DNA from: Myxococcales bacterium
GTDB lineage: Bacteria > Myxococcota_A > UBA9160 > SMWR01
Reading direction: 5' to 3'
DNA length: 64,000 nucleotides
NCBI GenBank assembly: GCA_029863845.1
Contig: JAOTUO010000001.1
Location: forward strand, 3,664 to 67,663
Below, one piece after another: positions 10,200 to 40,232 of the stretch. The translations under genes and the position numbers were made by a program. The notes under the pieces are model-generated. The model had not been told where the DNA came from, made no database searches, and was given only the letters and a program-made list of their open reading frames with translations. The first letter of the stretch is position 1; each line of letters opens with the position of its first letter.

Positions 10200-10206
10200 G
10201 TGCGCG

Positions 10207-10231
10207 GTGGGGAATCGTGGGTAATCGTGGG
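10207..10231 (+). promoter_or_regulatory. MraZ operator: three direct GTGGG repeats at 10-bp phasing
   Basis: The sequence is GTGGGGAATC GTGGGTAATC GTGGGATAGC, with GTGGG at 10207, 10217 and 10227. This matches the TGGGN-N5 x3 architecture described for E. coli MraZ autoregulation. It lies just downstream of the candidate -10 and 41 nt before the mraZ ATG. Confidence 0.65.
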
Positions 10232-10271
10232 ATAGCAGCCCTTTCGAGGCTCGAAGGATTGAATCTCGTCG

Positions 10272-10718: not shown

Positions 10719-10743
10719 AACGGTGTTTGGGGGTGAGAGGACC

Positions 10744-10919: not shown

Positions 10920-10921
10920 CA

Positions 10922-12228: not shown

Positions 12229-14261
12229 GAGGGAGCGACCTCCGCCTCGCCAGCCGACGGATCGCGGTCGCCCGTGCCCTGATGCTGCTCGCCTTCGCCG
12301 GGCTCGCGGCGCGCGCCGCGCACCTGAGTGTGGTGGACGAGCGCGGCGCCGATCGGGGCGAAGCGCAGTCCCGCCGCCTGCTGACGCTGCCTCCCGCGCG
12401 CGGCACCATCGTGGATCGTTCCGGCGCAGCGCTCGCGATCTCGGTCGAAGCCCCGTCCGTCTACGCGGTGCCCTCCCGCATCGACGACGTCGACGGCACC
12501 GCGGCCGCGCTGGCCCGGGTCTTCGGCGCGAAGGCCACGGCCCTCGCGGCGCGCCTCCGCGGCCATCCGTCCTTCCTGTTCCTCGAGCGCTGGGTCTCTC
12601 CGGAGCAGGCCCGGCGCGTGCGCACGCTCGCTCTGCCGGGCGTCGGCGTGCTGCGCGAGCCACGGCGCGTCTATCCCTACAGAGAGCTCGCGGCCCAGAT
12701 CCTGGGATTCGTCAACATCGACGCCGTCGGGGTCCGCGGAATCGAGCAGCAGGAGAACCGCTGGCTGCGCGGAACCGCCCGCCGCCTCCCCGCCGAGCGC
12801 GATGCCCGCGGCCGCCTCCTGGTCTCGGGGGGCGAGGAGCGCTGGAGTACCGCCGGGGGCGACGTCGCACTGACGATTGACGCGGCGCTCCAGGCCGACG
12901 CCGAGTCTGCGCTGCACGAGGCCGTCGCGAGAACCGGCGCGCGCGGCGGCGTCGTCATCTCGATGGATCCCCGATCCGGCGACCTTCTGGCGCTGGCGGA
13001 GCTGCCCGGGTTCGACCCGAACCGCTTTCGGGAGCTCGACTACGACGCCACGCGCTCGCGCGCCTTCCTCGACGCGGCGGAGCCGGGCTCCACGCTCAAG
13101 ACCTTCCTGATCGCGGCGGCGCTCGAGGACGGAGTCATCGGGGCCGACGACCGCTTCGACTGCGAGAACGGCGTCTTCGAAATTCCCGGCAAGACCATCC
13201 GCGACCACGACCCTCACGGCGAGCTCACCGCACTCGAGATCCTGCGTGTCTCGAGCAACATCGGCGCGGCCAAGATCGCGCGCGCCCTGGGACCCCGGGC
13301 GCACTACAAGATGCTGCGCCGCTTCGGCTTCGGAACGTCGACCCGCAGCCGCTTCCCGGACGAGTCGGCGGGCGTGTTGCGCTCCTGGCGCGGATGGAAG
13401 CCCGTCGACCACGCGACGATCGCGTTCGGCCAGGGCGTGAGCGTGACGCCGATCCAGCTCGTAGCCGCCACGGCCGCCATCGCCAACGGCGGCGAGTGGG
13501 TGCGCCCGCGGCTCGTGGGCGCGCGCCGCGTGGCGGGGCAGCCCTGGCAGCCGACCGACCGAGAGACGGCTCGTCGCGTGTTGCGGGCCGAAACCGCGTC
13601 CGCCCTGATGGCGATGCTCGAGGAAGTCGTGGGCCCCGACGGCACCGGAAGCGCCGCCGCGCTGCGCGGCGTGCGCGTGGCGGGAAAAACCGGAACGGCG
13701 CAAAAGCTGGACCCGAAGACCCGCCGCTACGCCCGGAATCGCTTCCGCGCGTGGTTCGTCGGCATCGTCCCGGCCGACGACCCGAGGCTCGTGATCCTCA
13801 CCGGGCTCGACGAGCCGCGGCGGCCGACGCACACCGGTGGCGCGGCGGCGGCGCCGCTCTTCGCGCGGGTGGCCGCGGCGCAGCTCTCGCGTTTTGGAAT
13901 CTTCACGGCGCCGCAGCCGGCTCCGTCGCGTGCGGTGCCGACGCAGACGGCGCAAGCCGCTCCCGCCCCTTCCGTCTCGAGTGCGCCCCCGCGTGCCGCA
14001 CCGGAACCCGCCGCGGCGGCGAGAGCGCTCCCGGTCCTCGCGCGAATCGACGACCGCGTGCTGCTGCCGGATCTGCGCGGCCTCACCGTGGAACAGGTGA
14101 AGCGGATCACAGCGGAAGGAGCCCTCGCGGTCGAGATTTCCGGCAGCGGTCGCGCGATCGCGCAGGACCCCCCGCCCGGAACCGTAGTGCCCGCCCACGC
14201 GGGGCGGATTCGCGTCCGGTTCGCGGCGGGCGGCGTCGGGGGCGGGGAGGAAGAGGGCTGA
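12225..14261 (+). CDS. ftsI: Peptidoglycan D,D-transpeptidase FtsI (class B PBP) with C-terminal PASTA domain
   Basis: STLK (AEPGSTLKTF), SSN (RVSSNIGAAK) and KTGT (VAGKTGTAQK) motifs are present. The C-terminal LLPDLRGLTVEQVKRITAEGALAVEISGSGRAIAQDPPPGTVVPAHAGRIRVRF matches the PASTA pattern. GTGA overlap with ftsL. Confidence 0.9.
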   Translation: MRGSDLRLASRRIAVARALMLLAFAGLAARAAHLSVVDERGADRGEAQSRRLLTLPPARGTIVDRSGAALAISVEAPSVYAVPSRIDDVDGTAAALARVFGAKATALAARLRGHPSFLFLERWVSPEQARRVRTLALPGVGVLREPRRVYPYRELAAQILGFVNIDAVGVRGIEQQENRWLRGTARRLPAERDARGRLLVSGGEERWSTAGGDVALTIDAALQADAESALHEAVARTGARGGVVISMDPRSGDLLALAELPGFDPNRFRELDYDATRSRAFLDAAEPGSTLKTFLIAAALEDGVIGADDRFDCENGVFEIPGKTIRDHDPHGELTALEILRVSSNIGAAKIARALGPRAHYKMLRRFGFGTSTRSRFPDESAGVLRSWRGWKPVDHATIAFGQGVSVTPIQLVAATAAIANGGEWVRPRLVGARRVAGQPWQPTDRETARRVLRAETASALMAMLEEVVGPDGTGSAAALRGVRVAGKTGTAQKLDPKTRRYARNRFRAWFVGIVPADDPRLVILTGLDEPRRPTHTGGAAAAPLFARVAAAQLSRFGIFTAPQPAPSRAVPTQTAQAAPAPSVSSAPPRAAPEPAAAARALPVLARIDDRVLLPDLRGLTVEQVKRITAEGALAVEISGSGRAIAQDPPPGTVVPAHAGRIRVRFAAGGVGGGEEEG

Positions 14262-15805
14262 TGCGACTGTCGAAGCTGCTGGCGACGCTGCCCCCGGAGC
14301 AGGGTCCCCTGCGCTTTGCGCGCGGGGACGACGACGACCCGGTGATCCGCGGACTCGGTTACGACTCGCGGAGCGTCGCAGCCGGCGACCTCTTCTTCGC
14401 GCTGAGGGGCGCCGTCTTCGACGGGCACGACTACCTCCAGCAGGCCGTCGATCTCGGGGCCGCCGCCGTCGTCGTCGATCAGATTCCGCCCGGGCTCGAC
14501 CTGCGCGGCCGGCCGGCCGTGGTCGTACACGACAGCCGGCGGGCGCTCGCGCCCATCGCCACCCGCTTCTACGGGGACCCCTCGTCCGAGCTCACGCTGA
14601 TCGGCGTGACCGGAACCAACGGCAAGACCAGCGTCACCTACCTGGTCGAGTCGATTCTGAAGACGGCGGGCCGGCGCACCGGCGTGATCGGCACGGTGGA
14701 GGTGCGTGACTCCGACGAGCGCGAGCGCGCCATCAACACCACGCCCGAGAGCTCCGACCTGCAGCGGATGCTACGCGCCATGCGCACCCGCGACGTCGAG
14801 GTGGTGCTGATCGAGGTCTCGTCCCACGGCCTCGAGCTCGGACGCGTCGACGGATGTCGCTTCGCCGTCGGCGCCTTCACCAATCTGACGCAGGACCACC
14901 TGGATTTCCACGGGACCATGGGCGCCTACCGCGATTCCAAGGCGCTGCTCTTCGGCCGTTACCTGTGCCAGGGCGGGATGGCGGTGCTGAACCTCGACGA
15001 CCCCTCCGTCGAGGACTTCGTGTGGGCCGCCAGGCGCACCGACGCGCGGATCATCGGCGTCACGCGCGACCCCTCGCGCTCCGGCGGGGTGCGACTCGAG
15101 GCCGCGGAGGTACACCTCGACGGGACCCGCGCCCGCGTCCGCACGCCCGCCGGAAGCCTCTCCGTGGTGCTTCCGCTGGTGGGCGACTTCAACGTGGAGA
15201 ACATGCTCGTCGCCTGCGGCATCGCGGTGGCGCTGGACGTCGAGCCCTCGGTCATCGTCGCAGGCATCGAGGCCTGCCCCCAGGTGCCCGGCCGGGCGGA
15301 GCGCATCGAGGCGTCGAATCCCGACGCGCCGACAGTGCTGGTCGACTACGCCCACACCCCGGACGCCGTGGACAAGCTTCTGCGCACCCTGCGCCCTCTC
15401 GCCCAGGGTCGCCTCATCACGGTCTTCGGATGCGGCGGCGACCGCGACCGCGCCAAGCGACCGCTCATGGCCGGAGCCGTCGCGCGCTGGAGCGATCGCA
15501 TCGTCGTCACCACCGACAATCCGCGCACCGAGGACCCGCTGCGGATACTCGCCGACGTGGAGGACGGCTTCGTGAAGCTTCGGCGCATCGACGTGGACGC
15601 CCTCGACGCCGCGACCGGGGCCTACGCCCTCGTCCCCGATCGCCGCGCCGCGATCCAGGCGGCCATTGGCATCGCCCGGGCGGGCGACATGGTGGTCCTC
15701 GCCGGCAAGGGCCACGAGGACTACCAGATCGTCGGACGCGATTCGCTCCCCTTCAGCGACCGCGACGAGGCGCGGCGCGCCCTCGCCGCCCGAGGCCGCG
15801 CATGA
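14261..15805 (+). CDS. murE: UDP-N-acetylmuramoyl-L-alanyl-D-glutamate--2,6-diaminopimelate ligase MurE
   Basis: ORF 13394..15805 trimmed to ATG 14261, which overlaps the ftsI TGA by 1 nt. LIGVTGTNGKTSVTYL P-loop and a DNPR-containing C-terminus (VVTTDNPRTEDP). Confidence 0.95.
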   Translation: MRLSKLLATLPPEQGPLRFARGDDDDPVIRGLGYDSRSVAAGDLFFALRGAVFDGHDYLQQAVDLGAAAVVVDQIPPGLDLRGRPAVVVHDSRRALAPIATRFYGDPSSELTLIGVTGTNGKTSVTYLVESILKTAGRRTGVIGTVEVRDSDERERAINTTPESSDLQRMLRAMRTRDVEVVLIEVSSHGLELGRVDGCRFAVGAFTNLTQDHLDFHGTMGAYRDSKALLFGRYLCQGGMAVLNLDDPSVEDFVWAARRTDARIIGVTRDPSRSGGVRLEAAEVHLDGTRARVRTPAGSLSVVLPLVGDFNVENMLVACGIAVALDVEPSVIVAGIEACPQVPGRAERIEASNPDAPTVLVDYAHTPDAVDKLLRTLRPLAQGRLITVFGCGGDRDRAKRPLMAGAVARWSDRIVVTTDNPRTEDPLRILADVEDGFVKLRRIDVDALDAATGAYALVPDRRAAIQAAIGIARAGDMVVLAGKGHEDYQIVGRDSLPFSDRDEARRALAARGRA

Positions 15806-17205
15806 GCGTTCCGTTCCGAGCACAGGACGCGGCGGACTGGACCGCGGGCGCCCTGCTCCAGGGACGGCCGGAGATCCGCTTCACGGGCGCGTCCATCGAC
15901 ACGCGCAGCGTCGGCGCCAACGATCTCTTCGTCGCGATCGTGGGACCCAGCCACGACGCGCACCGCTTCCTGCCGGAGGCGATCGCGGGCGGCGCCAGCG
16001 GCCTGGTGATGGAGCGCGGGCGCGCACTCCCCGCCGAGATCAAACCCGACGTCCCTGTGGTCGCGGTAACCGACACCACGCGCGCGCTCGGCGCCCTCGC
16101 GGCGGGACACCGCGCCGGCTTCCGCGGCCCCGTGGTCGCCATCACCGGCAGCAACGGAAAGACAACCACGAAGGAGATGTGTGCGGCAATCCTCTCCGTC
16201 GCCGCTCCCTGCCTCAAGAACGAGGGAAACCTCAACAACCAGTTCGGACTGCCCCTCACGCTGCTGCGGCGCAACGCGACGGATCGACGCATCGTCGTCG
16301 AAATCGGCATGAACCACCGCGGCGAGATCGCCGCCCTGGCAGCCATCGCAGCCCCGACGATCGGCGTCCTCACGAACATCGGCGCGGCGCACATCGAGCA
16401 CCTGGGCAGTGAGGACGAGATCGCGCGCGAGAAGGGCGATCTGCTGGCGTGCCTTCCGGCCGACGGGACCGCGGTGGTCAACGCCGACGATCCCCGCGCC
16501 GCGGCGCAGGCCGGTCGCAGCGATGCTCGCGTCGTGCGCTTCGGGCGTGCCGCGGACGCCGACGTTCGCGCCGAGCGCGTGGCCGAGCGAAGCGGACGCG
16601 GCTTTGCGTTCGAGCTCCACGCCCCCGAAGGTCGCACCCCGGTCGAAGTCGCCGGCGTCGGCGAAACCGCGATCCTGAACGCCCTCGCCGCCGCCGCCGC
16701 CGCCCTGGCGGCCGGCGCGGGGCTCGACGAGGTCAGCGAGGGTCTCGCGGCCCACCGCCCCGTGCGCGGGCGCATGCAGCGACGAGACCTGCCCGGCGGC
16801 GTGGTCGTGCTCGACGACACCTACAACGCCAACCCGCAGTCGATGGACGCGGCGCTGGAGAGCCTGGCGCGCGCGAAGGGCGACCACCGGGGCCTCGTGG
16901 TCGTCGGCGACATGGGCGAGCTCGGCGCGGCGTCCGACGAGGCCCACGCCCAGGTCGGCCGGCGCGCCGCGGCACTCGGCCTCGACGGCCTCTTCGCCCT
17001 GGGCGAGCACGCCGAGGGCGTCGCCGCGGCCGCCATCGAGGCGGGAATGCCGACGGAGCGCGTGCACGTCGGCGCCGACCACGCCGGCCTCGCCACGCTG
17101 GTGCGGTCCGCGCTGCAGCGCGGCGACTGGATTCTCGTCAAGGGCTCGCGCGCCATGCAGATGGAGCGCGTCGTGGAAGAACTCGCCGGGGAGGAGGCGC
17201 ACTAG
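15802..17205 (+). CDS. murF: UDP-N-acetylmuramoyl-tripeptide--D-alanyl-D-alanine ligase MurF
   Basis: ORF 14854..17205 trimmed to ATG 15802 (ATGA overlap with murE). VVAITGSNGKTTTKEM and VLDDTYNANPQSM. Confidence 0.95.
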   Translation: MSVPFRAQDAADWTAGALLQGRPEIRFTGASIDTRSVGANDLFVAIVGPSHDAHRFLPEAIAGGASGLVMERGRALPAEIKPDVPVVAVTDTTRALGALAAGHRAGFRGPVVAITGSNGKTTTKEMCAAILSVAAPCLKNEGNLNNQFGLPLTLLRRNATDRRIVVEIGMNHRGEIAALAAIAAPTIGVLTNIGAAHIEHLGSEDEIAREKGDLLACLPADGTAVVNADDPRAAAQAGRSDARVVRFGRAADADVRAERVAERSGRGFAFELHAPEGRTPVEVAGVGETAILNALAAAAAALAAGAGLDEVSEGLAAHRPVRGRMQRRDLPGGVVVLDDTYNANPQSMDAALESLARAKGDHRGLVVVGDMGELGAASDEAHAQVGRRAAALGLDGLFALGEHAEGVAAAAIEAGMPTERVHVGADHAGLATLVRSALQRGDWILVKGSRAMQMERVVEELAGEEAH

Positions 17206-18279
17206 ATGCTGTATCACCTGCTCTACCCGCTGGCGTCGGAGTTCTCGGGCTTCAACGTCTTCCGCTACATCACCTTTCGCACCGGCGCGGCGACGCTGAC
17301 GGCGCTCTTCATCGCCTTCCTCGTCGGCCCCCCGCTGATCCGGAAGCTCGGGCGGCTGCGGGTGGGGCAACCGATCCGCGAGGTCGGTCCCGATCACGCC
17401 GACAAGGCGGGCACGCCCACGATGGGCGGACTGCTGATCCTGCTCTCCTTGCTCGTCTCGGTGCTGCTGTGGTCCAACCTCGACAGCCGCTTCGTCTGGA
17501 CCGTGCTCGGCGTCACCGTCGGCTACGGGCTGCTGGGTTTCATCGACGACTACCAGAAGGTCAAGAAGGGGCACAGCGGCGGGATCTCCGGGCGCGTCAA
17601 GCTCGCGTGGCAGACGGTGCTGGCGCTCGCGGTCGCCGTCGCGATCTACAACGACCCGGGCTTCGACGCACAGCTCGCGGTCCCCTTCTTCAAGAACTTC
17701 ACGCCCCATCTCGGATGGCTCTACATCCCCGTCGCCACCTTCATCATCGTCGGGGCGAGCAACGCCGTGAACCTCACCGACGGGCTCGACGGGCTCGCGA
17801 TCGGTCCGGTGATGATCGCAGCGGGAACCTTCCTGATCCTCTCCTACGCCGCCGGCCACGCGGGCATCGCCGACTATCTCGCCATCAAGTACGTCGCCGG
17901 AAGCGGCACGCTCGCCATCTTCTGCGGTGCGCTGCTCGGCGGGGGAATGGGATTCCTCTGGTTCAACGCGTCACCGGCGCAGCTATTCATGGGCGACGGC
18001 GGCTCCCTGGCCCTCGGCGGCGCACTGGGGACCATCGCGGTCCTGATCCGGCAGGAGATCCTTCTCGCCGTCGCCGGCGGGATCTTCGTGGTCGAGACGC
18101 TGTCCGTGATCATCCAGGTGGCCTCGTTCAAGCTCAGGGGGAAGCGGGTCTTCCTCATGGCGCCGATTCACCACCACTTCGAGGAGCTGGGCTGGCCGGA
18201 GCCGAAGATCGTGGTCCGATTCTGGATCGTGTCCGCGATCCTCGGCCTGGTTGCCCTGTCCTCGCTGAAGCTGCGCTGA
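17206..18279 (+). CDS. mraY: Phospho-N-acetylmuramoyl-pentapeptide transferase MraY
   Basis: [24 protein letters not shown] and APIHHHFE motifs. 357 aa. Confidence 0.97.
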
Positions 18280-19619
18280 TGAAGGACCTCGCCGATCGAC
18301 GCGTGCTCGTGCTCGGTCTCGGCGTCTCCGGCGTCAGCGCGGCAAACTTCTGCGCGGAGCGGGGCGCACGGGTGGTGGCGGCTGACGAACGCCCGGCCCG
18401 GGCGCTGAGCGGACTTTCGGACCTCGACGCGCGCGTGGAGCGGGTGCTCGGCCGCGCCTTTCCGGATCCGGCGGATTTCGACCTGGTCGTTCCGAGCCCG
18501 GGCGTGCCGCGCGAGCGCTATGCCGATCGCGCCCGCCGCGCCTGGGGCGACGTGGAGCTGCTCTACCGCGTGCTCGCCGTGCCGATCCTGGCGGTCACCG
18601 GGACCAACGGGAAGTCGACGACGACGCGGCTGGCGGAGTCGATGCTGCGCGCGGCCGGTCTGCGGACGCGCGCCGCGGGAAACGTCGGCGCGCCGGCGCT
18701 GGGCCTCGTGGGGGAGGCCCTCGACTGGGCAGTCCTGGAGGTCTCGTCGTTCCAGCTGGAGACGACCGAGGAGTTCCGCCCGCGCGTCGCGGTGATCCTC
18801 AACCTCACGCCGGACCACCTGGACCGCCACGGGAGCTTCGAGGCCTACCGCGACGCCAAGGCCCGGATCCTCGCGCGCCAGGAAGCCGACGACGTCGCCG
18901 TCCTGAACTTCGACGACCCTGCCGTCCGCGATCTCGCGGACGCGTGCCGAGCGCGGGTCCTTCCGTTTCGGACCGCCGGCGCGCTGTCGCACGGCGCCTG
19001 GCTCGACGGGAGCTGCATCGTGATCCGGGACGGCGACGGGCCGGCCGTCCGCCTTCCCCTGGACGGCCTGCGCCTGTCCGGCCTGCACAACCGGGAGAAC
19101 GCCGTGGCCGCGCTCGCCGCTGTCGCCGCCGCGGGCGCGGACCCCTCCAAGGCGATCCTGGCGCTCGACGGCTTCGTCGGACTTCCCCACCGTGTGGAAG
19201 AGGTCGGCCGAGCGGGCGGCGCGCTCTTCGTGAACGACTCGAAGGCCACGAATCCCGGCGCCGCCGTCCAGTCGCTCCGCAGCTTCCCCGCCTCCGTGAT
19301 CTGGATCGCCGGAGGTCGGGACAAGGGGCTCGACTTCGCTGAGCTCGCCGCCGTCGCCGCCGCGCGCGTACGCGCCGCCGTGCTGATCGGGGAGGCCGCC
19401 GGGAAGCTCGAGGCAGCGCTTGCCGGCCGCGTCGACGTGCTCGCCGCCGCGTCGATCGAGGAGGCCGTCCAGCGCGCGGCCGGCCTGGCCCGGAGGGGCG
19501 ACGTCGTCCTGCTGTCGCCCGCCTGCGCCAGCCAGGATCAGTTCCGCGACTTCGAGGAGCGCGGCGATCGCTTCCGCGTGGCGGTCGCCGCCCTCGCGCG
19601 CCGAGAGGGCGCGCCGTGA
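18279..19619 (+). CDS. murD: UDP-N-acetylmuramoylalanine--D-glutamate ligase MurD
   Basis: ORF 16449..19619 trimmed to ATG 18279, which overlaps the mraY TGA by 1 nt. VLVLGLGVSGVSAANF and ILAVTGTNGKSTTTRL. Confidence 0.95.
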   Translation: MKDLADRRVLVLGLGVSGVSAANFCAERGARVVAADERPARALSGLSDLDARVERVLGRAFPDPADFDLVVPSPGVPRERYADRARRAWGDVELLYRVLAVPILAVTGTNGKSTTTRLAESMLRAAGLRTRAAGNVGAPALGLVGEALDWAVLEVSSFQLETTEEFRPRVAVILNLTPDHLDRHGSFEAYRDAKARILARQEADDVAVLNFDDPAVRDLADACRARVLPFRTAGALSHGAWLDGSCIVIRDGDGPAVRLPLDGLRLSGLHNRENAVAALAAVAAAGADPSKAILALDGFVGLPHRVEEVGRAGGALFVNDSKATNPGAAVQSLRSFPASVIWIAGGRDKGLDFAELAAVAAARVRAAVLIGEAAGKLEAALAGRVDVLAAASIEEAVQRAAGLARRGDVVLLSPACASQDQFRDFEERGDRFRVAVAALARREGAP

Positions 19620-20866
19620 TCCGGACCCGCATGAGACGCCGGACGCCGCCGCGCCGGCGCCACTTCGGGCGGGCGGCGCGGACGGGCCCTCGCGGACGCC
19701 GGGCTTCGCGCGTGCGCGCGGGCACGCGCAGCGAGCCCGTCTCCCGGCCGCTCGACGGCGGCGTCGTGGCGCCGGCGGCACTGCTCGCCGGCGTGGGAAT
19801 CGTCATGGTCTACAGCGCGACCGCACCGCTGGCGATCGGGGAGTTGGTGCCGCCGCACTTCGTCCGGCACCTCCTCGCGGTCGGGCTCGCGCTCGGGTGT
19901 GCAGCAGCCGCGACGCGGATTCCGCTGGTGGCGTGGCGGCGCCTGGCCATGCCGCTCTGGGTGGCGGGCGTCGCGCTGCTCGCCGCGACGCTTGTCGTGG
20001 GTGTCGAGGCGAACGGCGCCAACCGCTGGCTCGCCCTTCCCGGCGTTCCCGTCCGCTTCCAGCCGGCGGAGATCGCGAAGTGGACCACGGTGCTCGCCAT
20101 CGCCGCGCTGCTGGCGAAGGGGACGGAGCGCGGCCCGAGCCCGTGGCGCGGTGCGCTTGCGCTGGTTGCGGCGCCCGTGGGACTCCTGCTCCTACAACCG
20201 GATTTCGGCAGCGCCGCGCTCGTGGTCGTGCTGGGGGGGCTCCTGCTGTTTGCGGCCGGGGCGCGGCTCCGAGTCCTGTTCGCAGCGGCCGCCGCGGCGT
20301 GTGCCGGCGCCGGTGTCTATGCCGCGCTGCGGCCGTACGCGCTGGCGCGCTGGAAGGGCTTCCTCGACCCGTGGCAGACGGCCGGCAACGAGGGCTTCCA
20401 GCTGGTGCAGTCCTTCGTGGCCTTCGGCCGCGGAGGCAGCTTGGGCGTCGGCCTCGGCGACGGCCGCCAGAAGCTCTTCTACCTGCCCGAGGCGCACACG
20501 GACTTCATCCTCTCCGTGGTCGCGGAAGAGCTGGGGCTCGTGGGCGTCCTGGTGGTGCTCGGCGCCTTCGCCGCGCTGATCGTCGCCGGCACGCGGATCG
20601 CCCGCCGTGCCCGGGATCCCTTCGCCCTGCTCGTCGCCTTCGGCATGATGGCGCTGATCGCCGTGCCGGCCGCGGTCAACGCGGCCGTCGTCATGGGACT
20701 GCTGCCGACGACCGGCTTCCCGCTGCCCTTCCTCTCCCTGGGCGGAAACTCGCTGCTCGTGTGCTCGCTCGCGCTCGGGATCCTGCTGCGCATCGCGTCG
20801 CGCGAGGCCGCCCCGCGCGAAAGGCGGGTGGCGGGCGCGGCCCCGCGCGGACTGGTGGCCTCGTGA
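19616..20866 (+). CDS. ftsW: Peptidoglycan glycosyltransferase FtsW (SEDS family)
   Basis: GANRWLALPGVPVRFQPAEIAK, QPDFGSA and FIPEAHTDFI-like (YLPEAHTDFILSV) motifs. GTGA overlap with murD. About 45 aa of Arg-rich N-terminal tail. Confidence 0.9.
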   Translation: MIRTRMRRRTPPRRRHFGRAARTGPRGRRASRVRAGTRSEPVSRPLDGGVVAPAALLAGVGIVMVYSATAPLAIGELVPPHFVRHLLAVGLALGCAAAATRIPLVAWRRLAMPLWVAGVALLAATLVVGVEANGANRWLALPGVPVRFQPAEIAKWTTVLAIAALLAKGTERGPSPWRGALALVAAPVGLLLLQPDFGSAALVVVLGGLLLFAAGARLRVLFAAAAAACAGAGVYAALRPYALARWKGFLDPWQTAGNEGFQLVQSFVAFGRGGSLGVGLGDGRQKLFYLPEAHTDFILSVVAEELGLVGVLVVLGAFAALIVAGTRIARRARDPFALLVAFGMMALIAVPAAVNAAVVMGLLPTTGFPLPFLSLGGNSLLVCSLALGILLRIASREAAPRERRVAGAAPRGLVAS

Positions 20867-21981
20867 CCGGGCCGGGCGAACGACACTGGGTGGTGGCGGG
20901 CGGCGGCACCGGCGGGCACGTCACGCCGGCGCTGGCGCTGGCCGAGCAGATCGCTGCTCGGGGCGACTCGGTGCTGCTGCTCGGGTCCGAGCGCGGTCTC
21001 GAAAACCGGCTCGTCCCGGAAGCCGGCTTCGACCTGGTGGCCCTCCCCACCCGCCAGGTGATGGGCCGGGGGCTCGCGGCGCGGGCCGGAGCCGTCCCCG
21101 GGATGCTGCGCGCCTCCGCTTCGGCTTGGAAGACGCTGCGGGCCTCCCGGACCGACTTCGTGATCTCGGTCGGCGGCTACGCGTCGGTCCCGGCGGTGGC
21201 CGCCGCCGTGCTGGCGCGGGTGCCCCTCGCCATCGTGGAGCCCAACGCGATTCCCGGCCGGGCGAACCGGCTGGCGGCGCGCTTCGCCGCGCGCATCTTC
21301 GTGCAGTTCGAAGAGGCCACGCCGGTGTTCGCGCGCTCGGTCGGCGCCGACCGGATCCGGGCTCCGGGCATTCCGCTGCGCGCGGCCCTCGTCCAGGCCT
21401 TCTCCGACGGTCCGCCGCGGCGTGCGCCCTCCCCTCCCTTCCGCCTGCTGGTCTTCGGCGGCAGCCAGGGGGCTCGTCAGATCAACGAAGCCCTGATCGA
21501 AGCGGCGCCCTCCCTCGATCCCGCCGCGCTCGAGGTCGTTCACCAGACCGGCGACGCCGACCGCGATCGCGTCGCCGCCGCCTACGCGGCGGCCGGGATC
21601 CCCGCGGAGGTCGTGGCCTTCGAGCCGGACATGGCGCGCCGCTACCGCTGGGCCGACGTGGCCGTCTGCCGCGCGGGCGCGCTCACGGTGGCGGAGCTGG
21701 CGATGGCGACGCTTCCGGCGTTGCTCGTCCCCTACCCCTACGCCGCCGACGATCACCAGACGGCCAACGCCCGCGCCCTGGCCGACGCCGGTGCGGCGCG
21801 GCTGCTCGCGTCCCGCACCCTGTCTGGCCGTCGCATCGTCGAGGCCCTCGCGGCGCTGTTCGCGGCGCCGGAAACCCTGCGGGAGATGAGCAACCGCGCG
21901 GCCAAGCTCGCCCGCCCCGACGCCGCGGTCCGGATCGTGGCGGAGTGCGCTGCGCTGCTCGACGCGCGGGAGCGGAGGTAG
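20863..21981 (+). CDS. murG: UDP-N-acetylglucosamine--N-acetylmuramyl-(pentapeptide) pyrophosphoryl-undecaprenol GlcNAc transferase MurG
   Basis: ORF 19420..21981 trimmed to GTG 20863 (GTGA overlap with ftsW). VVAGGGTGGHVTPALALA and CRAGALTVAELA. Confidence 0.95.
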   Translation: MTGPGERHWVVAGGGTGGHVTPALALAEQIAARGDSVLLLGSERGLENRLVPEAGFDLVALPTRQVMGRGLAARAGAVPGMLRASASAWKTLRASRTDFVISVGGYASVPAVAAAVLARVPLAIVEPNAIPGRANRLAARFAARIFVQFEEATPVFARSVGADRIRAPGIPLRAALVQAFSDGPPRRAPSPPFRLLVFGGSQGARQINEALIEAAPSLDPAALEVVHQTGDADRDRVAAAYAAAGIPAEVVAFEPDMARRYRWADVAVCRAGALTVAELAMATLPALLVPYPYAADDHQTANARALADAGAARLLASRTLSGRRIVEALAALFAAPETLREMSNRAAKLARPDAAVRIVAECAALLDARERR

Positions 21982-21984
21982 GCG

Positions 21985-23373
21985 ATGCGACGCCGCATCG
22001 AGCGCATCCACTTCGTCGGCGCGGGCGGGATCGGCATGTGCGGCCTCGCCGAGCTGCTGCACAACCAGGGATACGCCATCAGCGGCTCCGATCTGAAGTC
22101 GGGCCCCACGGTCGAGCGCCTGCGTTCCCTGGGAATCGAGATCGCGATCGGACACGACCCGAGCCACGTCGGCTCCGCCGACGTGGTCGTCTACTCCTCC
22201 GCCGTGCGCCCGAACAACCCGGAATTGCGCGAGGCCGAGCGCCTCAAGATTCCGGTGATCCCGCGCGCGGAGATGCTCGCCGAAACCATGCGACTGAAGG
22301 AGGGCATCGCCGTCGCCGGCAGCCACGGCAAGACGACCACCACCTCGCTGATCGCCCACGTGCTCGACGCGGCGGGCCTCGACCCGACCGCCGTGATCGG
22401 CGGCCGCGTGCGCGCCGCGCGGGGCGCGGCGACCGGTGCCCGGCTCGGCGCCGGAGACCTCCTGGTGGCCGAAGCCGATGAGAGCGACGGCTCGTTCCTG
22501 CGCCTCGCCCCGGTGATCGCCGTGGTAACCAACATCGATCCGGAGCACCTCGACCACTACGGCTCGTTCGCGGCGCTCCAAGACGCCTTTGCGGCCTTCG
22601 CGAACCGAGTCCCCTTCTGGGGGCTCGCGGTGCTCTGTCTCGACCACCCCGGCGTGCAGGCCATCGTGCCGCGCATGACCCGACGCACCGCCACCTACGG
22701 GTTCGCCTCGCAGTCGGACCTCCTGGCCACCGACCTCGAGCCGGAGCGCGACGGCATGCGCTTCGAAGTCCGTCACCGCGGGGAGGCGCTGGGCCCGGTT
22801 CACTTGCCGCTGCCGGGTCGCCACAACGTGCTCAACGCCCTCGCGACGATCGCCGTGGCCCTCGAGCTGGGTGTTTCCTTCGAGCGGGCGGCGGCGGCCC
22901 TCGACAGCTTCCCCGGCATCGAGCGGCGCTTCGAGACCAAGGGCGAGGTCTCCGGCATCCGCGTCGTCGACGACTACGGCCACCATCCCGCGGAGATCAC
23001 GGCAACCCTGTCTTCGGCGCGCGGACTCCACGCCGGGCGCATCGTCGTCGCCTTCCAGCCGCATCGCTACACGCGCACGCGCGATCTCTGGGACGAGTTC
23101 ACCACCGCGTTCAACGACGCCGACCTCCTGTTCGTGACCGGGATCCATCCTGCCGGCGAGAGCAAGATCCCCGGCGTCGAGGCCGCTCCGCTCGTGGAGG
23201 CCATCGGCGCCCACGGGCACCGCAACGTGCACTTCGTTCCCGACCTCGAAGCAGTGCTCGAACGCCTGGTCGCCGAAGCGAAGCCGGGCGATCTCGTGAT
23301 GACGCTCGGAGCGGGGAGCATCGCGACGCTCGGGGCGCGGCTGATCGAGCGCCTGCGGGAGGGAACGCGGTGA
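21985..23373 (+). CDS. murC: UDP-N-acetylmuramate--L-alanine ligase MurC
   Basis: IHFVGAGGIGMCGLAELL and IAVAGSHGKTTTTSLI. 462 aa. Confidence 0.95.
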   Translation: MRRRIERIHFVGAGGIGMCGLAELLHNQGYAISGSDLKSGPTVERLRSLGIEIAIGHDPSHVGSADVVVYSSAVRPNNPELREAERLKIPVIPRAEMLAETMRLKEGIAVAGSHGKTTTTSLIAHVLDAAGLDPTAVIGGRVRAARGAATGARLGAGDLLVAEADESDGSFLRLAPVIAVVTNIDPEHLDHYGSFAALQDAFAAFANRVPFWGLAVLCLDHPGVQAIVPRMTRRTATYGFASQSDLLATDLEPERDGMRFEVRHRGEALGPVHLPLPGRHNVLNALATIAVALELGVSFERAAAALDSFPGIERRFETKGEVSGIRVVDDYGHHPAEITATLSSARGLHAGRIVVAFQPHRYTRTRDLWDEFTTAFNDADLLFVTGIHPAGESKIPGVEAAPLVEAIGAHGHRNVHFVPDLEAVLERLVAEAKPGDLVMTLGAGSIATLGARLIERLREGTR

Positions 23374-24287
23374 TCGCCCGGGCCACTCGCGAAGCCCTCG
23401 AGGAAGCTCTGGGCGACGCCGTCCGTTTCGACGTTCCGATGTCGCGCTACACGTCACTGCGCGTCGGCGGTCCGGCCGATGCCCTCGCCACGCCGTCGAG
23501 CCGCGCCGATCTGGCGCGGCTGCTGGCCGTGTGCATGACCCACCGACTGCGCCACGCCATCCTCGGCGCGGGCTTCAATACGCTGGCGCTCGACCATCGC
23601 ATCGAGGGCGTCGTGATCCAGATGGGAGGGCTGCGGCGCCTCGAAGAGCGGCCCGGCGGCCTCCTGCGGGCTGAGGCCGGCGTCTCCCACGCGCAGCTCA
23701 CGAACTTCTGCTGCCGCCGCGGACTCGCCGGCCTCGAGTTCGGGGCGGGAATCCCCGGGAGCGTCGGCGGCTGGCTCGCGATGAACGCCGGCATTCCCGG
23801 ACGAGAAATGAAGGACGTCGTCCACGAGGTCGAGGTGATGAGCCCGACCGGCCGGCGCGTGAGCCACCTGCGCCGCGAGGCGCTCCGCTTCGTCTACCGT
23901 GCGCTGCGCGGGCTCGCGCCGGGCTCGGTGCTGCTGTCGACGCTGCTCGAAGTCGAGGTTGCTCAGCCGGCCGCCGTCCGCGCCGAGGTGAAGCGCCTGC
24001 TCGCGAAGCGCGCGGGGACGCAACCCCTCGACGTCCCCACCTGCGGATCGGTGTTCAAGAACCCGCCCGGCGACTTCGCCGGCCGACTGATCGACGCCGC
24101 GGGCTTGAAGGGGCGGCGCATCGGCGGCGCGCAGATCTCTCCGCTGCACGCGAACTTCATCTCCAACCTGGGCGGCGCGACGGCGGCGGACATCCTAGCC
24201 CTGATGGAGGAGGCGCGAGCGGCGGTGAAAGCCGCGACGCAGACGCGGCTCGAAACCGAGGTGCGGCTGCTCGGGAGGAAGGGTTGA
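23370..24287 (+). CDS. murB: UDP-N-acetylenolpyruvoylglucosamine reductase MurB
   Basis: YTSLRVGGPAD, GAGFNTL, GSVGGWLAMNAG and CGSVFKNP. GTGA overlap with murC. Confidence 0.95.
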   Translation: MIARATREALEEALGDAVRFDVPMSRYTSLRVGGPADALATPSSRADLARLLAVCMTHRLRHAILGAGFNTLALDHRIEGVVIQMGGLRRLEERPGGLLRAEAGVSHAQLTNFCCRRGLAGLEFGAGIPGSVGGWLAMNAGIPGREMKDVVHEVEVMSPTGRRVSHLRREALRFVYRALRGLAPGSVLLSTLLEVEVAQPAAVRAEVKRLLAKRAGTQPLDVPTCGSVFKNPPGDFAGRLIDAAGLKGRRIGGAQISPLHANFISNLGGATAADILALMEEARAAVKAATQTRLETEVRLLGRKG

Positions 24288-25240
24288 GGGGACGGCGGCG
24301 ACGCGTCACCGCGGGTCGCGGCGCCCTCACCCGCACGGAGCGGGCGTCGCAGGCGCGGCGGCAGCGAGCGCTCGCGCATCTGGAGCGGGTGCGCGGTCAC
24401 GCCGGCTCGCCGCGGGAGCCGCGCTTCCGCGGCGCCGTCGCCGTCGCCGCGCTGCTGGCGTCCTCCGTTGCGGCCGGCGCCCTGTTCGGCCCCTCGCTCG
24501 TCACGGCGACGTCGGGCTGGCTCTCGGGCGCGACTCCCCGGCTGAAGGCGATTCGCGTGCACGGCCTCGAACGGCTCTCCGCCGGCGAGATCGCCGCGGC
24601 GACCGGCCTGGCGCGCGGCGCCACGCCGGCCGAGGTGGTTCCCGGCGAGGTGGTCGAGCGCCTGGAGGCCCACTCCTGGGTAGCGGCGGCGCGTGCGGTA
24701 CGCCTCTCGAGCCGAACCCTGTTGGTGGACGTGCGCGAGCGCGTGCCGCTGGCGGTGGCGCCGGCCGGGAAAGACGAGTCCCCGTTCCTCGTGGACGCAA
24801 CCGGGACGCCCTTCACCTCCGCAGCGGCGGCGACCTCGGAGGGACTGCCGCGCCTGGTGCCGGCCACCGCCGTCGCACCGGGCGAGCCCGACGACGCGCT
24901 GGCGGCGGCGGTGGCACTCGCGCAGCAGCTGCCCGCGTTCGGCCTCGCGGTGCCCACGCAGGTCCGGATCGCTGCGGCCGGAGACCCCCTGGGATTCGTC
25001 GTGCACCTGAGCGGTCTCACCGCACGCTTCGTGCTCGGGCGCGAGGATCTCGACGACCGACTCGCCGGGCTGGCGCGCTTGCTCGCCGCGAACCTCGTCG
25101 AGACCGCCAAAGCGACGAGCGTGGACCTTCGCTTCGCGGACCAGGCGGTCCTGCGGAAACGGCCGCCCCCGAAAGGGGCGGCGCAAGTGGCGGCGGAGCG
25201 CGGAGGCGCGGCGCCGTCCAACACGAGACCGTCCGGATGA
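24284..25240 (+). CDS. ftsQ: Cell division protein FtsQ (POTRA domain)
   Basis: TTG 24284 overlaps the murB stop as TTGA. An Arg-rich cytoplasmic tail is followed by a TM helix (AVAVAALLASSVAAGALF) and a POTRA-like LKAIRVHGLERLSAGEIAAATGL. The start is uncertain, as in-frame downstream GTG candidates exist. Confidence 0.8.
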   Translation: MRGRRRRVTAGRGALTRTERASQARRQRALAHLERVRGHAGSPREPRFRGAVAVAALLASSVAAGALFGPSLVTATSGWLSGATPRLKAIRVHGLERLSAGEIAAATGLARGATPAEVVPGEVVERLEAHSWVAAARAVRLSSRTLLVDVRERVPLAVAPAGKDESPFLVDATGTPFTSAAAATSEGLPRLVPATAVAPGEPDDALAAAVALAQQLPAFGLAVPTQVRIAAAGDPLGFVVHLSGLTARFVLGREDLDDRLAGLARLLAANLVETAKATSVDLRFADQAVLRKRPPPKGAAQVAAERGGAAPSNTRPSG

Positions 25241-25303
25241 GCCGGCGGTCTCCAGCGGGCGGCGGGCCGAGCCCGTCACCCGTGGACACGGGGGGAGAGA
25301 GGG

Positions 25304-26542
25304 ATGTCTCGCAATGATGATCTGATCGTCGGACTCGACATCGGAACCACCAAGATCTGCGTCATCGTCGCCGAACGCACCGAGAACGGCGTCGACATCA
25401 TCGGCATCGGCACGCATCCGTCGCGCGGTCTGCGCAAGGGTGTGGTGGTGGACATCGACGCCACCGTCAGCTCGATCAAGCACGCCGTCGAGGAAGCCGA
25501 GCTGATGGCCGACTGCGAGATCACGTCGGTCTTCGCGGGGATCGCCGGCAGTCACATCCATGGCTTCAACTCCCACGGCGTGGTCGCGGTGAAGGATCGG
25601 GAGGTGAGCGAGAGCGACGTGCGTCGAGTGATCGACGCCGCCAAGGCGGTCGCGATCCCCATGGATCGCGAGGTGATCCACGTGATCCCGCAGGAGTTCA
25701 TCGTCGACGAACAGGACGGCGTGCGCGAGCCGCTCGGAATGAGCGGCGTGCGCCTCGAGGCCCGGATCCACATCGTCACGGCGGCGGTGACGAGCGCGCA
25801 GAACATCGTGAAGAGCGCGAACAAAGCCGGCCTCAACGTCGTCGACATCGTGCTCGAGCCCCTCGCCTCGGCGGAGGCCGCACTCGCCGATGACGAGCGC
25901 GACCTCGGCGTGTGCCTCATCGACATCGGCGGCGGCACCACCGACCTCGCGGTCTTTGCCGACGGCTCGATCAAGCACACTTCGGTGTTGGGCCTCGGGG
26001 GCTACCACATCACCAACGACATCGCGGTGGGACTGCGGACGCCCTTCGACGAGGCCGAGCGCATCAAGAAGAAGTTCGGCGTGGCCTCGGCGCGCTACCT
26101 CGGCAGCGACGACGTGATCACGGTGCCGAGCGTGGGCGGGCGGCGACCGCGCGAGGTCTCGCGAAAGATCCTGTGCGAGATCATCGAGCCGCGGGTCGAC
26201 GAGATCCTGAGCCTCGCCCGCCAGGCGATCGTGAAGGCGGGCCTGGACGGCAAGATCCCCTCGGGCGTCGTCCTGACAGGCGGCTGCTCGGCGCTCGAGG
26301 GACTCATCGACCTGTCGGAGGAGATCTTCGAGTCGCCGGTGCGGCCCGGAGTTCCCACCAACATCGGCGGACTCCAGGACGTGGTCCGCGGCCCCATGTA
26401 CGCCACTGGCGTGGGTCTCGTGCTGTTCGGCGCCTCGGAGAAGCGGGGCCGCCTCAGCACGCGCTTTCGCATCCGGGACGGGTCGATCTTCGGCCGGGTC
26501 AAGCAGCGGATGCGCGACTGGTTCTTCGGGGAATTCGACTGA
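25304..26542 (+). CDS. ftsA: Cell division protein FtsA
   Basis: LIVGLDIGTTKICVIVAE, LIDIGGGTTDLAVF and VLTGGCSALEGL are actin-fold motifs. RBS GGGGGGAGAGAGGG precedes the ATG. Confidence 0.95.
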   Translation: MSRNDDLIVGLDIGTTKICVIVAERTENGVDIIGIGTHPSRGLRKGVVVDIDATVSSIKHAVEEAELMADCEITSVFAGIAGSHIHGFNSHGVVAVKDREVSESDVRRVIDAAKAVAIPMDREVIHVIPQEFIVDEQDGVREPLGMSGVRLEARIHIVTAAVTSAQNIVKSANKAGLNVVDIVLEPLASAEAALADDERDLGVCLIDIGGGTTDLAVFADGSIKHTSVLGLGGYHITNDIAVGLRTPFDEAERIKKKFGVASARYLGSDDVITVPSVGGRRPREVSRKILCEIIEPRVDEILSLARQAIVKAGLDGKIPSGVVLTGGCSALEGLIDLSEEIFESPVRPGVPTNIGGLQDVVRGPMYATGVGLVLFGASEKRGRLSTRFRIRDGSIFGRVKQRMRDWFFGEFD

Positions 26543-26608
26543 TGGGATCAGGGCCGGGCGGAGGCCGGCCCGGGCGGCGGGAGTCTCGCAACTCGTGGGC
26601 CCAAACCG

Positions 26609-26636
26609 TTACAAAAACGGCGTTTTGAAGTAACAT
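26609..26636 (+). promoter_or_regulatory. Candidate internal promoter for ftsZ
   Basis: TTACAA (26609-26614), a 16-nt spacer, then TAACAT (26631-26636), in the locally AT-richer ftsA-ftsZ spacer. Pattern match only. Confidence 0.3.
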
Positions 26637-26671
26637 TTGGCGCGCGGACAGCGCGCGAGAGGGGGTGAGAG

Positions 26672-28054
26672 ATGTCCAGGCGAACAGGTCGAAACAACGG
26701 ATCGAAGGGCTCCACGGGGCCGGTGACTCGCGGCGAGCAAGCCCCGGCGGAGGTCGGGGACCTGCTGCGGCTCGAGGGGGACGAGCAGCGCCCGCTGCTC
26801 GAGTTCGAGAGCGCCTCCCGGCAGCGGGCGCGGATCAAGGTGATCGGCGTCGGCGGCGGCGGCGGCAACGCCCTGAACAACATGGTCCGGGCCGAGCTCC
26901 GGGGCGTGGAGTTCGTGGCGGCGAACACGGACGCGCAGGCGCTCCACCACAACCTCGCCACCCACAAGGTCCAGCTCGGCGCGGAGGTCACCCGTGGCCT
27001 CGGGTGCGGGGCCGATCCGGACAAGGGCCGCGGATCGGCGCTCGAGGTGCGCGAGCGGCTGCTCGAGCTGCTCGAAGGCACGGACATGGTGTTCGTGACC
27101 GCGGGCCTGGGAGGCGGCACCGGCACGGGGGCGGCCCCCGTGATCGCGGAGGTCGCGCGCGAGGTCGGGGCGCTGACGGTCGGCGTCGTCACCAAGCCCT
27201 TCCTGTTCGAGGGCAAGGTGCGGATGCGCCACGCGGAGAAGGGCCTCGACGAGCTGCACGGCGTCGTGGACACGGTGATCACGATTCCCAACCAGCGCCT
27301 GCTGGCGCTGGCCGGGAAGGGCACGGCAATGAGCGAAGCCTTCCAACTGGCCGACGAGGTGCTGTTCAACGCGGTTCGCGGCATCTCCGACCTGATCACG
27401 ATCCACGGTCTCATCAACCTCGACTTCGCCGACGTGCGCACGATCATGAACGAGATGGGCGTGGCGATGATGGGGACCGGCGTGGGCACGGGCGACGAGC
27501 GCGGCACGGAAGCAGCGCGCGCGGCGATCTCCAGCCCGTTGCTCGAGGACATGTCGATCGACGGCGCTCACGGCGTGCTGATCAACATCACCGGCGGCGC
27601 CGACCTCACGCTGTACGAGGTGAACGAGGCGTCCACGCTGATCCAGGAGGCGGCTCACGAAGACGCGAACATCATCTTCGGCGCGGTGATCGACGAGACG
27701 ATCCCCAAGGGCGAGATGCGGGTGACCGTGATCGCGACGGGCCTCGACGGCAACCGGATGCGCCGAGGGCGTCACGACGGCGTCGCGCACACGGAGGGCC
27801 GCAGCAACGTGACGCCGCTGCGGCGCGATCCGATGCCCCTCGACGATCGGATCCCCGCGGCGGAGCATCGCGCGGAACCGATGTCGGGCCCGGGCGCTGA
27901 CGGGGCAGGCGCCGTGCACCCGAACGCGGGTAGCGACTGGATGTCGCCCTTCGAGGACGAGCTGGACGTTCCGACCTTCATCCGGCGGGGCGGACACGCG
28001 GACGACGACGACGAGATCGAGAAGCCCGCGTTCCTGCGGCGGTCGGCCGACTGA
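26672..28054 (+). CDS. ftsZ: Cell division GTPase FtsZ
   Basis: [36 protein letters not shown] and [21 protein letters not shown] precedes ATG 26672. About 55 aa of N-terminal extension before the GTPase core. Confidence 0.97.
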
Positions 28055-28065
28055 GAGCCGGCGCG

Positions 28066-28089
28066 CTTCCGGCGCGGAAGACCCCTTTT
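28066..28089 (+). terminator. Candidate intrinsic terminator after ftsZ
   Basis: CTTCCG-GCG-CGGAAG hairpin (28066-28080) followed by ACCCCTTTTC. The stem is short, so support is modest. Confidence 0.4.
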
Positions 28090-28129
28090 CGGGATTGCCG
28101 CGGAGGGAGGGCTCAGGCAGGCTGGGGCC

Positions 28130-28942: not shown

Positions 28943-28965
28943 CGCCGCCCGGCCGGGCCACGTGA

Positions 28966-29157
28966 CGCAGCGACGAGCCAGGGCGAGGGCCGAAGGGGAC
29001 CCCGCAGCGAAATCAAGCGCAGGCCATCAATGCCTTGGCAAGGCGGCGCAGCCGCCGCGCAGTGAGCCGCAGGCGAACGAAGTCAGACTCCTGAGGATGG
29101 CCGAGCCATTCGCGGAGGGGTCCCCTTCGGCCCTCGCCCCGCTGCCGCGTCGCTGCG
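28966..29157 (+). repeat. Hairpin-bracketed conserved-core intergenic element, copy A
   Basis: The ~120-nt core (29001-29120) is flanked by complementary arms. CGCAGCGACG..GGGCGAGGGCCGAAGGGGACCCC (28966-29002) pairs with GGGGTCCCCTTCGGCCCTCGCCC..CGTCGCTGCG (29117-29157). It fills most of the convergent spacer between the crotonase and yqeY stops. Confidence 0.85.
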
Positions 29158-29166
29158 CTGGGGCGC

Positions 29167-32773: not shown

Positions 32774-32934
32774 GAGGTCCGGAGCCGCAGGGATCCCGCA
32801 GCGAAATCAAGCGCAGGCCAAACCAATCTTCGCAAGGCGGCGCAGCCGCCGCGCAGTGAGCCGCAGGCGAACGAAGTCAGACTGCTGAGGATGGCCGAGC
32901 CATTCGCGGAGGGATCCCTGCGGCTCCGGACCTC
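32774..32934 (+). repeat. Hairpin-bracketed conserved-core intergenic element, copy B
   Basis: Perfect 24-bp inverted arms: GAGGTCCGGAGCCGCAGGGATCCC (32774-32797) and GGGATCCCTGCGGCTCCGGACCTC (32911-32934). They enclose a core identical to copy A apart from an 11-nt patch and one substitution. Confidence 0.9.
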
Positions 32935-39790: not shown

Positions 39791-40232
39791 CGTGCCGGAG
39801 GTGGATGGAGGATCGCCGGCGAACAAACACCGTTCGCGGGAGGAAAGTCCGGGCTCCAATGGGCAGGGAGGTCGCTAACGGCGACCCGGGGTAACCCGAG
39901 GGAAAGCGCCGCAGAAACGACACCGCCGATGGCCTGCGATCCCCCGGCTGCGAGAGGCAGCCGGGGAGGAGGCACAGGCAAGGGTGAAAACGTGGGGTAA
40001 GAGCCCACGCGCGACAGCCGGGTGACCGGCGGCGGGGCAAGCCCCTCCCGGAGCAAGCTCGAATAGAGGCGCTGTCGAGGGCGGTCCGCCCGAGCAGCCG
40101 CAGCCGCGGCTCCAGCACCCGGGTCAGAGCGCTCGAGCGGCCCAGCAATGGGCCGCCTAGATGAATGATCCTCGCCGGCGCGGGGGCAACCGCGCGCCGG
40201 AACAGGACCCGGCTTACAGTCCACTTCGGGAG
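39791..40232 (+). ncRNA. rnpB: RNase P RNA, bacterial type A
   Basis: Universal blocks are on the plus strand: GGAGGAAAGTCCGGGCTCC (P4 5' strand), CCGCCGATGGCC, CAAGGGTGAAA, GGTAAGAGCCCAC, CCCGGAGCAAG, CTAGATGAATGA and AACAGGACCCGGCTTAC (P4 3' strand). P2 pairs GAGGAT with ATCCTC. P1 pairs CCGGAGGTGGA (39795-) with TCCACTTCGGG (-40230). Ends are good to about +/-10 nt. Confidence 0.92.

Follow-up and report, generated by a model that had tools for sequence, protein, structure and literature searches.

Three copies of a hairpin-forming DNA element, termed A, B and C, lie within the window analysed here, a 64,000-nt stretch of contig JAOTUO010000001.1 from a metagenome-assembled genome (MAG; 71% G+C) of an uncultured member of the Myxococcota. 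The family to which they belong shows unusually clear evidence of concerted evolution of its two arms, of in-place inversion of the core between them and of swapping of the module in the middle. The copies were defined with a 44-mer from the interior of copy B, which has three matches in the window where none is expected. Copy B is a complete 161-nt imperfect palindrome (32774–32934, plus strand), aligned here with 81 other copies, in which the left arm GAGGTCCGGAGCCGCAGGGATCCC (32774–32797) forms the 5′ half of an outer stem, P1, and is complementary at 24 of 24 positions to the right arm (32911–32934), which forms the 3′ half; an inverted-repeat search lengthens both arms to 32 nt, which are then 94% complementary. 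Directly inside the arms sit a left junction motif, GCAGCGAAATCAAGCGCAGGCC (32798–32819), invariant throughout the family except for two free positions, and a right junction motif, GGCCGAGCCATTCGCGGA (32893–32910), which pairs imperfectly with the left one. The apical region between these motifs (32820–32892) consists of a linker, a type I module and a second linker, the module comprising two C-GNA-G triloop hairpins (GGCGGC-GCA-GCCGCC and GCC-GCA-GGC). Copy B folds with −101.1 kcal/mol on the plus strand (z = −8.0 versus shuffles) and −102.1 kcal/mol on the minus strand (z = −7.4). Copies A (28981–29139, plus strand) and C (59698–59854, minus strand) are likewise complete elements with a type I module. 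The former has a 23-bp perfect stem and, outside the family unit, a 10-nt outer block (CGCAGCGACG, 28966–28975) complementary to CGTCGCTGCG at 29148–29157, as read directly on the plus strand; the latter has a 24-bp stem with 22 Watson–Crick pairs, one G:T and one A·C. These counts confirm the pairings given for the three copies in an earlier, sequence-only reading of this DNA.

Copy A is flanked by the convergent ends of genes for an enoyl-CoA hydratase (ECH; plus strand, ending at 28942) and yqeY (minus strand, ending at 29167), and copy C by those of genes for a fatty-acid desaturase (plus strand, ending at 59690) and HupE/UreJ (minus strand, ending at 59871). Copy B lies between the divergent starts of qor (quinone oxidoreductase) and of a gene for a hypothetical secreted protein, as originally noted, and this position is exceptional for the family: among 71 copies with both neighbours called, 45 lie between convergent gene ends and only one between divergent starts. 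In tandem contexts, 11 copies are co-oriented and 14 anti-oriented, and element orientation is random relative to genes. By comparison with a 79%-identical orthologue (L139), qor probably starts at GTG 32721 (minus strand), 14 codons upstream of an ATG at 32679, which would give the N-terminus M-KAIVIDAPGDES that the orthologue has. For the hypothetical gene, GTG 32987 is the likelier start and would give a plausible signal-peptide N-terminus; copy B lies ~52 nt from each of these two codons. The public gene call of the hypothetical protein begins instead at ATG 32891–32893, within the right motif of copy B (GGATGGCC), an example of how the repeat can mislead gene callers. Furthermore, two contigs (L017 and L018) stop ~86 nt beyond the ECH stop, inside copy A, and the repeat itself probably caused this assembly break.

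To define the family, metagenomes were scanned with the left motif, which returned at least 117 loci, from which at least 148 complete elements (at least 130 of them distinct, with stems mostly of 20–26 bp) were extracted; the family alignment comprises 82 non-orthologous copies. Together, these copies define an interspersed repeat of ~160 bp, modular and hairpin-forming, in uncultured Myxococcota. The order of the unit is arm (~22–25 nt), left motif, apical region, right motif and second arm, with the left motif (GCAGCGAAAT-nn-AGCGCAGGCC) and the right motif (GGCCGAGCCATTCGCGGA) invariant across the alignment. The apical region comes in two interchangeable types, type I, as in the window, and type II, both present in the same contigs, and core lengths fall into classes of 81, 104, ~117 and ~180 nt. 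The junction motifs pair imperfectly with each other (P2, GCGAA/TTCGC; P3, GC..GGCC), and these pairings are invariant, so that covariation speaks neither for nor against them. In 6 of the 82 copies (e.g., L045, L047, L048, L090, L104 and L111), the right junction reads CGCTGCGGG in place of CGCGGAGGG, so that a conserved 3×3 internal loop (GCA opposite GGA) is replaced by a perfect match to the left-side CCCGCAGCG. A resemblance of the left motif to an IHF site (AATCAA...) was ruled out, as those positions differ between copies, and a micro-open reading frame beginning in GGATGGCC was ruled out, as its ATG is missing from type II copies. Scanning species-representative genomes, a collection apparently without the host species, with the right motif gave 13 stretches, with a true copy only in L005, a shorter element in a MAG labelled ‘delta proteobacterium’; viral contigs scanned with both motifs held no copies, just chance matches in coding sequence. 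A literature search found no such repeat described in Myxococcota, which is not proof of novelty.

The sequence-only reading had described the outer parts of the arms as unrelated between copies A, B and C and the arms as nearly unalignable. This impression proved to be an artefact of sampling three copies, as the arms of the 82 copies align readily and share the consensus GCGGCCGGGGCCGAGG-nnn-GATCCC plus its complement. Arm variability is highest at positions 7–11 from the inner end, both arm ends being more conserved, and among copies at unrelated loci there are many whose arms are identical at 89% or more of their positions. Within the family, copies A and B belong to the divergent members and are not recent duplicates of each other; in the outer arm of copy B, a 1-nt insertion is matched by one in the partner arm. 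A many-copy alignment in which the arms prove to be ordinary conserved terminal inverted repeats had been named beforehand as an outcome that would refute the proposal, and this is largely what is seen, with the reservation that their compensated variation is real and large. Across the 82 copies, 96.8% of cells in the 23-bp P1 stem are paired, compared to only 31–50% in slid registers, and 22 of the 23 pairs have changed on both sides. Double-change cells number 342, versus 75.5 ± 8 after shuffling, and none of 500 shuffles came up to 342. Over the inner 22 pairs, 31 of the 82 copies are perfect and 22 copies have one non-Watson–Crick position. Double changes across the family (335 in total) divide into 172 of transversion type and 163 of transition type; transversion-type double changes pass through no G:U or G:T wobble intermediate.

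Among type I copies, conservation is sharply partitioned along the unit, with pairwise identities of 65% for the arms, 61% for the linkers and 95% for the junction motifs plus type I module. The earlier description of the cores as almost invariant therefore holds for the motifs and the module and fails for the linkers, whose divergence is on a par with that of the arms. How similar two copies are in their arms says essentially nothing about their similarity in the apical region or the linkers. The combination of nearly invariant cores and diverged, complementary arms had been judged incompatible with ordinary divergence; we find instead that differential constraint normally leaves just such a conserved core within a covarying closing stem.

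Two proposed origins of the arms, namely insertion of a core into the centre of pre-existing palindromes and an insertion or repair mechanism that builds inverted flanks from the target, were suggested by the fact that, with three copies alone, arms look unrelated while cores match. The shared arm consensus already speaks against both, and we regard either origin as having almost no remaining probability. No core-less palindrome with the arm consensus was found in ~780 kb of related DNA, a hairpin search giving only unrelated hairpins. At the position of copy A, where the gap between ECH and yqeY measures 224 nt in the window (28943–29166), two relatives have empty sites with gaps of 26 nt (L137, 1049–1074; ECH 86% identical) and 8 nt (L146, 1647–1654; ECH 82% identical), and neither gap holds a long palindrome such as the suggested shorter, pre-existing one. 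A third relative (L145; ECH 89% identical) retains a half-element remnant immediately after the ECH stop, consisting of an arm and inverted right-motif-like sequence followed by unrelated, lower-GC sequence. Whole units, arms included, recur at unrelated loci: those of L026 and L080 are 98.7% identical over 152 nt, and those of L093/L127 and L059/L121 ~92% identical over ~160 nt, with flanks unrelated on either strand in every case. Target duplication was not detected, end-to-end direct repeats being no longer than with shuffled partners, and the variable segment of the arm shows no relation to the flanks of its own copy, with shared 6-mers in 38 copies versus a null of 35.4 ± 4.4 obtained with the flanks of other copies. 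Since the family has a common arm consensus and new loci receive the arms together with the core, the arms belong to the unit: they are the element's own terminal inverted repeat and ordinary parts of the repeat family, rather than target DNA captured or sequence generated at insertion.

To describe how resident copies change, orthologous loci from different samples or populations were identified by all-against-all comparison of flanks. In orthologous pairs with diverged flanks, arm changes comprised 45 compensated, 34 one-sided and 8 other events. One locus (L068) differs in its arms from its orthologues (L118 and L120) by nothing except one G:C to A:T double change, and the arms of copy C differ from those of its orthologue in L081 (3557–3712) by two compensated changes plus the two mismatches of copy C. 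Arm-to-arm gene conversion, the third of the mechanisms raised by the sequence-only reading, thus gains support from the compensated changes in place, from the abundance of transversion-type changes and from five inversions of the core.

These inversions were observed in five orthologous groups, in which the core (~110 bp) is reversed in place while arms and flanks remain collinear. For copy C and L081, the loci are 85% identical over 1556 nt and the core matches only in reverse (89.8% over 157 nt); for L037 and L084, the loci are 96% identical and the element is 97.5% identical in reverse. The remaining groups are L021 versus L062 and L124, L035 and L102 versus L125, and L059 versus L047 and L110. 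Graph ambiguity during assembly is an unlikely cause of the opposite core orientations, because the 24-bp arms are shorter than the expected final k-mer sizes (ENA names begin ‘k141’). Flips separate 1 of 16 near-identical pairs and 4 of ~19 diverged orthologous pairs, and a rough two-state estimate from these counts suggests a flip rate on the order of the per-site substitution rate, which would not be phase variation. Flipping of the core would leave its orientation random relative to neighbouring genes.

Inverted repeats around a segment found in both orientations at orthologous loci also recall programmed invertible switches (invertons), and the family might then be a genome-wide set of hundreds of recombinase-driven switches. 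A recombinase would bind the junction motifs and arm ends and cross over in the variable middle of the arm, which must match between partners, as must a lox or FRT spacer, and this matching crossover region would explain the self-complementary arms. The arm layout (a conserved outer part, 5–7 hypervariable bp and a conserved inner part) and the invariant motifs directly inside the arms suit such a scheme, and if it were true, flipping would reorient a directional activity of the core between neighbouring genes. We nevertheless consider it very improbable, as flips are rare between near-identical loci and in the minority between diverged ones, their implied rate is not that of phase variation, covariation extends along the whole arm rather than being limited to a spacer, no recombinase gene lies beside any copy examined, no promoter was detected in the core, and most copies sit between convergent gene ends.

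Middle modules, too, change in place. The orthologous loci L078 (1100–1560) and L130 (824–1281, minus strand) have flanks ~90% identical on both sides and orthologous arms that differ by three compensated changes, but their modules are of different types, II in one and I in the other; at this locus, the apical module was swapped while the arms stayed. Arrays of partial units provide further views of the modular anatomy. Tandem left half-units occur in L064 (3330–3574), L065 (1537–1747, minus strand), L022 and L080, each array consisting of two to four left halves (arm, left motif and short linker, with a period of 47–78 nt) followed by one right half, and perfect pairing with the right arm is limited to the innermost left arm. 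In L095, the apical module is triplicated in tandem inside a full element. Readings of the tandem half-units as attC sites or as CRISPR/TIGR-like arrays were ruled out by their anatomy.

The window also holds a homologue of the type I module that lacks arms and junction motifs, a 57-nt tandem repeat (1547–1755, plus strand; 3.7 units, 96% matches) overlapping the 3′ end of an open reading frame at 572–1582. Close by, at 2050–2154, two direct repeats spaced 63 nt apart bear a recurring GCGCAGCGAGCC-nn-AGGCGAGCGGAG motif and overlap the end of an open reading frame (1815–2090) that reads as a putative TatA-like protein; in the relative L139 (5540–5580), one module of the GCGCAGCGAGCC-nn-AGGCGAGCGGAG type is found next to a hairpin where two genes converge. 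Immediately upstream of copy A lies the division and cell-wall (dcw) cluster (~10000–28100), for which public gene calls list mraY, murD, ftsW, murG, murC, murB, ftsQ, ftsA and ftsZ.

We favour, with a probability of roughly 55%, a reading in which the element's own arms drift in place and are kept matched by arm-to-arm exchange, around a core that is constrained and exchanged between copies. Briefly, the arms travel with the core when a unit appears at a new locus and, in a resident copy, would drift at roughly the speed of unconstrained sequence. Exchange between them, through intra-element recombination or through replication template-switching across the palindrome, would keep them matched, and the same kind of event would invert the core in place. 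Quasipalindrome template-switching, a replication-based perfecting of imperfect inverted repeats, has been studied in E. coli. Exchange of this kind would yield both inversions and wobble-free double changes at near-neutral speed, and selection for a foldable single strand probably adds to the matching of the arms. The junction motifs and the type I module are under strong sequence constraint, presumably as a protein-recognition site, and apical modules would be exchanged between copies with the invariant motifs as anchors. The core may thus look invariant because constraint on motifs and module is joined by module exchange; exchange anchored on the junction motifs would give arms and core separate histories, and arm identity would be independent of core identity because apical modules are exchanged between copies. 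We infer both the role of the junction motifs and that templated exchange between arms, rather than stepwise selection, matches them.

Several considerations weigh against this reading. The present data do not separate templated conversion from compensatory selection acting fast in large populations. All of them come from metagenome assemblies, and the inversions were compared between assemblies rather than inside one population. Some ‘compensated’ differences between orthologues could reflect replacement of the whole element at a preferred site, and in several cases orthologous arms are just modestly more alike than random pairs. Genes between paired copies in L057, L082 and L022, analysed with Pfam, encode housekeeping enzymes and no transposase or recombinase. 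A tblastn search of ~865 kb of loci with an E. coli RAYT query, a weak test, gave nothing credible, the best match (E = 0.9) being to a non-coding frame where a real gene occupies the opposite strand. Furthermore, the element is asymmetric between strands: type I copies average 4.75 C-GNA-G triloops on the plus strand versus 0.64 on the minus strand, stem G:T mismatches exceed A:C by 39 to 20, and 33 of 48 de-duplicated loci have a negative GC skew when oriented to the element (p = 0.013), gene strand being unbiased. The C-GNA-G triloop is unusually stable in DNA, and its middle base is free here (first loop: GCA 10, GTA 9, GAA 8, GGA 7). These strand-specific features hint at selection on one folded strand, which arm exchange leaves unexplained, and they seem hard to reconcile with frequent flipping in place.

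Folding of one strand is what a structured RNA family, whether a cis element of 3′ untranslated regions or a multicopy small RNA, would predict, with P1 covarying under selection at the RNA level and the junction motifs binding a protein or forming an RNA motif. The very strong P1 covariation around an invariant junction, the fold z-score of −8, the excess of G:T over A:C, the plus-strand-specific triloops with a free middle base and the preference for gene 3′ ends are all consistent with such a family. We consider it improbable nonetheless, as orientation relative to flanking genes is unbiased (11 versus 14), the core flips in five orthologous groups, so that the transcribed strand would change, and transversions, for which no wobble route exists, make up half of the double changes. 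Neither a consensus structure nor covariation emerged in the type II apical region, a weak negative given the poor alignment there, and tandem half-unit arrays behave as DNA repeats. In the window, Rfam 15 gave no match at gathering score other than a class A bacterial RNase P RNA (39797–40232, plus strand; 220 bits, E = 4e-70), and at E ≤ 10 the repeat itself matched no family, the only additional matches being spurious microRNA and VA RNA hairpins. Scans for intrinsic terminators were empty, the stem being followed by C-rich sequence and not by a T-run (on the 5′ side, the flank ends in A), in agreement with the original statement that copy B is not simply a terminator, and no sigma-70-like promoter was found in or around copies A and B by a scan that is blind to other promoter types.

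Selection on a single strand would also follow if the element were a REPIN-like non-autonomous transposon, with a HUH/Y1 (RAYT-type) transposase, encoded by a single-copy gene, acting on the hairpin as single-stranded DNA. Copies that fold would alone replicate, and complementarity would reflect selection among replicators rather than correction between arms. High copy number, extragenic location and a long hairpin with common compensatory changes agree with what has been described for REPINs (Bertels and Rainey, PMC3116915). Whole units are copied to new loci with no target duplication, clusters of half-units and singlets exist, the triloops are specific to the plus strand, and orientation is biased relative to GC skew. 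We regard this alternative as possible but unlikely: the conservation pattern is the opposite of the invariant ends and less conserved, compensated spacer reported for REPINs (PMC3116915), a GTAG-type REP motif is not evident in the arm consensus, and the weak RAYT search revealed no Y1 transposase. Selection at the level of replicators alone, moreover, leaves compensated in-place change in the arms of resident orthologues unexplained. For the spread of the unit, as distinct from the matching of its arms, a REPIN-like single-strand route would be the closest analogue.

Across many related metagenome populations, orthologous copies show a palindromic repeat while its two arms change together, its core inverts and its middle module is swapped. 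This makes the family a natural setting in which to ask whether bacterial palindromes stay perfect by templated self-correction or by selection on the fold, a question usually approached only with engineered quasipalindromes. In practical terms, the repeat probably breaks assemblies and can mislead gene callers in uncultured Myxococcota.

Compared to known systems, the repeat shares with REPINs its nature as a high-copy extragenic sequence of ~100–160 nt with a long hairpin kept by compensatory changes (PMC3116915). Both occur as singlets and ordered tandem clusters, lack classical target duplication and concentrate at gene ends. They differ in that the arms, which form the ends here, are variable and directly enclose the invariant motifs, a GTAG-type REP motif is not evident, and the weak query of ~865 kb of loci found no RAYT gene. 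Module interchange and core inversion, both seen here, are unmentioned in the excerpt on REPINs (PMC3116915). The repeat further resembles ERIC and BOX elements in that length variants arise by internal indels, here visible as core length classes, and BOX in having a tandem module, here the apical module or left half-unit; sequence and host phylum differ, and the orientation here is random and the core flips. ERIC/IRU and BOX are modular intergenic repeats of enterobacteria and pneumococci, imperfect palindromes of 100–200 nt that are often transcribed; BOX elements consist of modules, one of them tandemly repeated, and both ERIC and BOX are thought to act in RNA with effects of orientation.

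Template-switching at quasipalindromes copies changes between arms and can invert the spacer, which fits the double changes and inversions seen here; it is a mutational mechanism and not an element family, and would act here only by our reading of these patterns. Invertons likewise have ~24-bp inverted repeats around a ~110-bp segment found in both orientations at the same locus. In contrast, the flip rate estimated here would be evolutionary, no invertase lies near the copies examined, no promoter was detected, copy number is far above that of any known inverton regulon, and known inverton families conserve their repeats rather than the interior. MITEs (miniature inverted-repeat transposable elements) such as Correia/NEMIS are similarly small, spread between genes, have inverted repeats at their termini and form a hairpin in transcripts or single-stranded DNA. 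They are nevertheless not a close match, since no target-site duplication is found here and the terminal repeats vary with compensation, rather than forming a conserved transposase site; we know of no parent insertion sequence for this repeat. Integron attC sites have conserved R″/R′ core sites (RYYYAAC ... GTTRRRY) at their ends and a variable palindromic centre. The ends here (GCGGCCGG.../...CCGGCCGC) show no GTTRRRY on reading, no pattern search having been made, and it is the centre that is conserved, not the ends. The repeat is thus of a familiar, REP/REPIN/ERIC/BOX-like kind, a new family rather than a new class of element.

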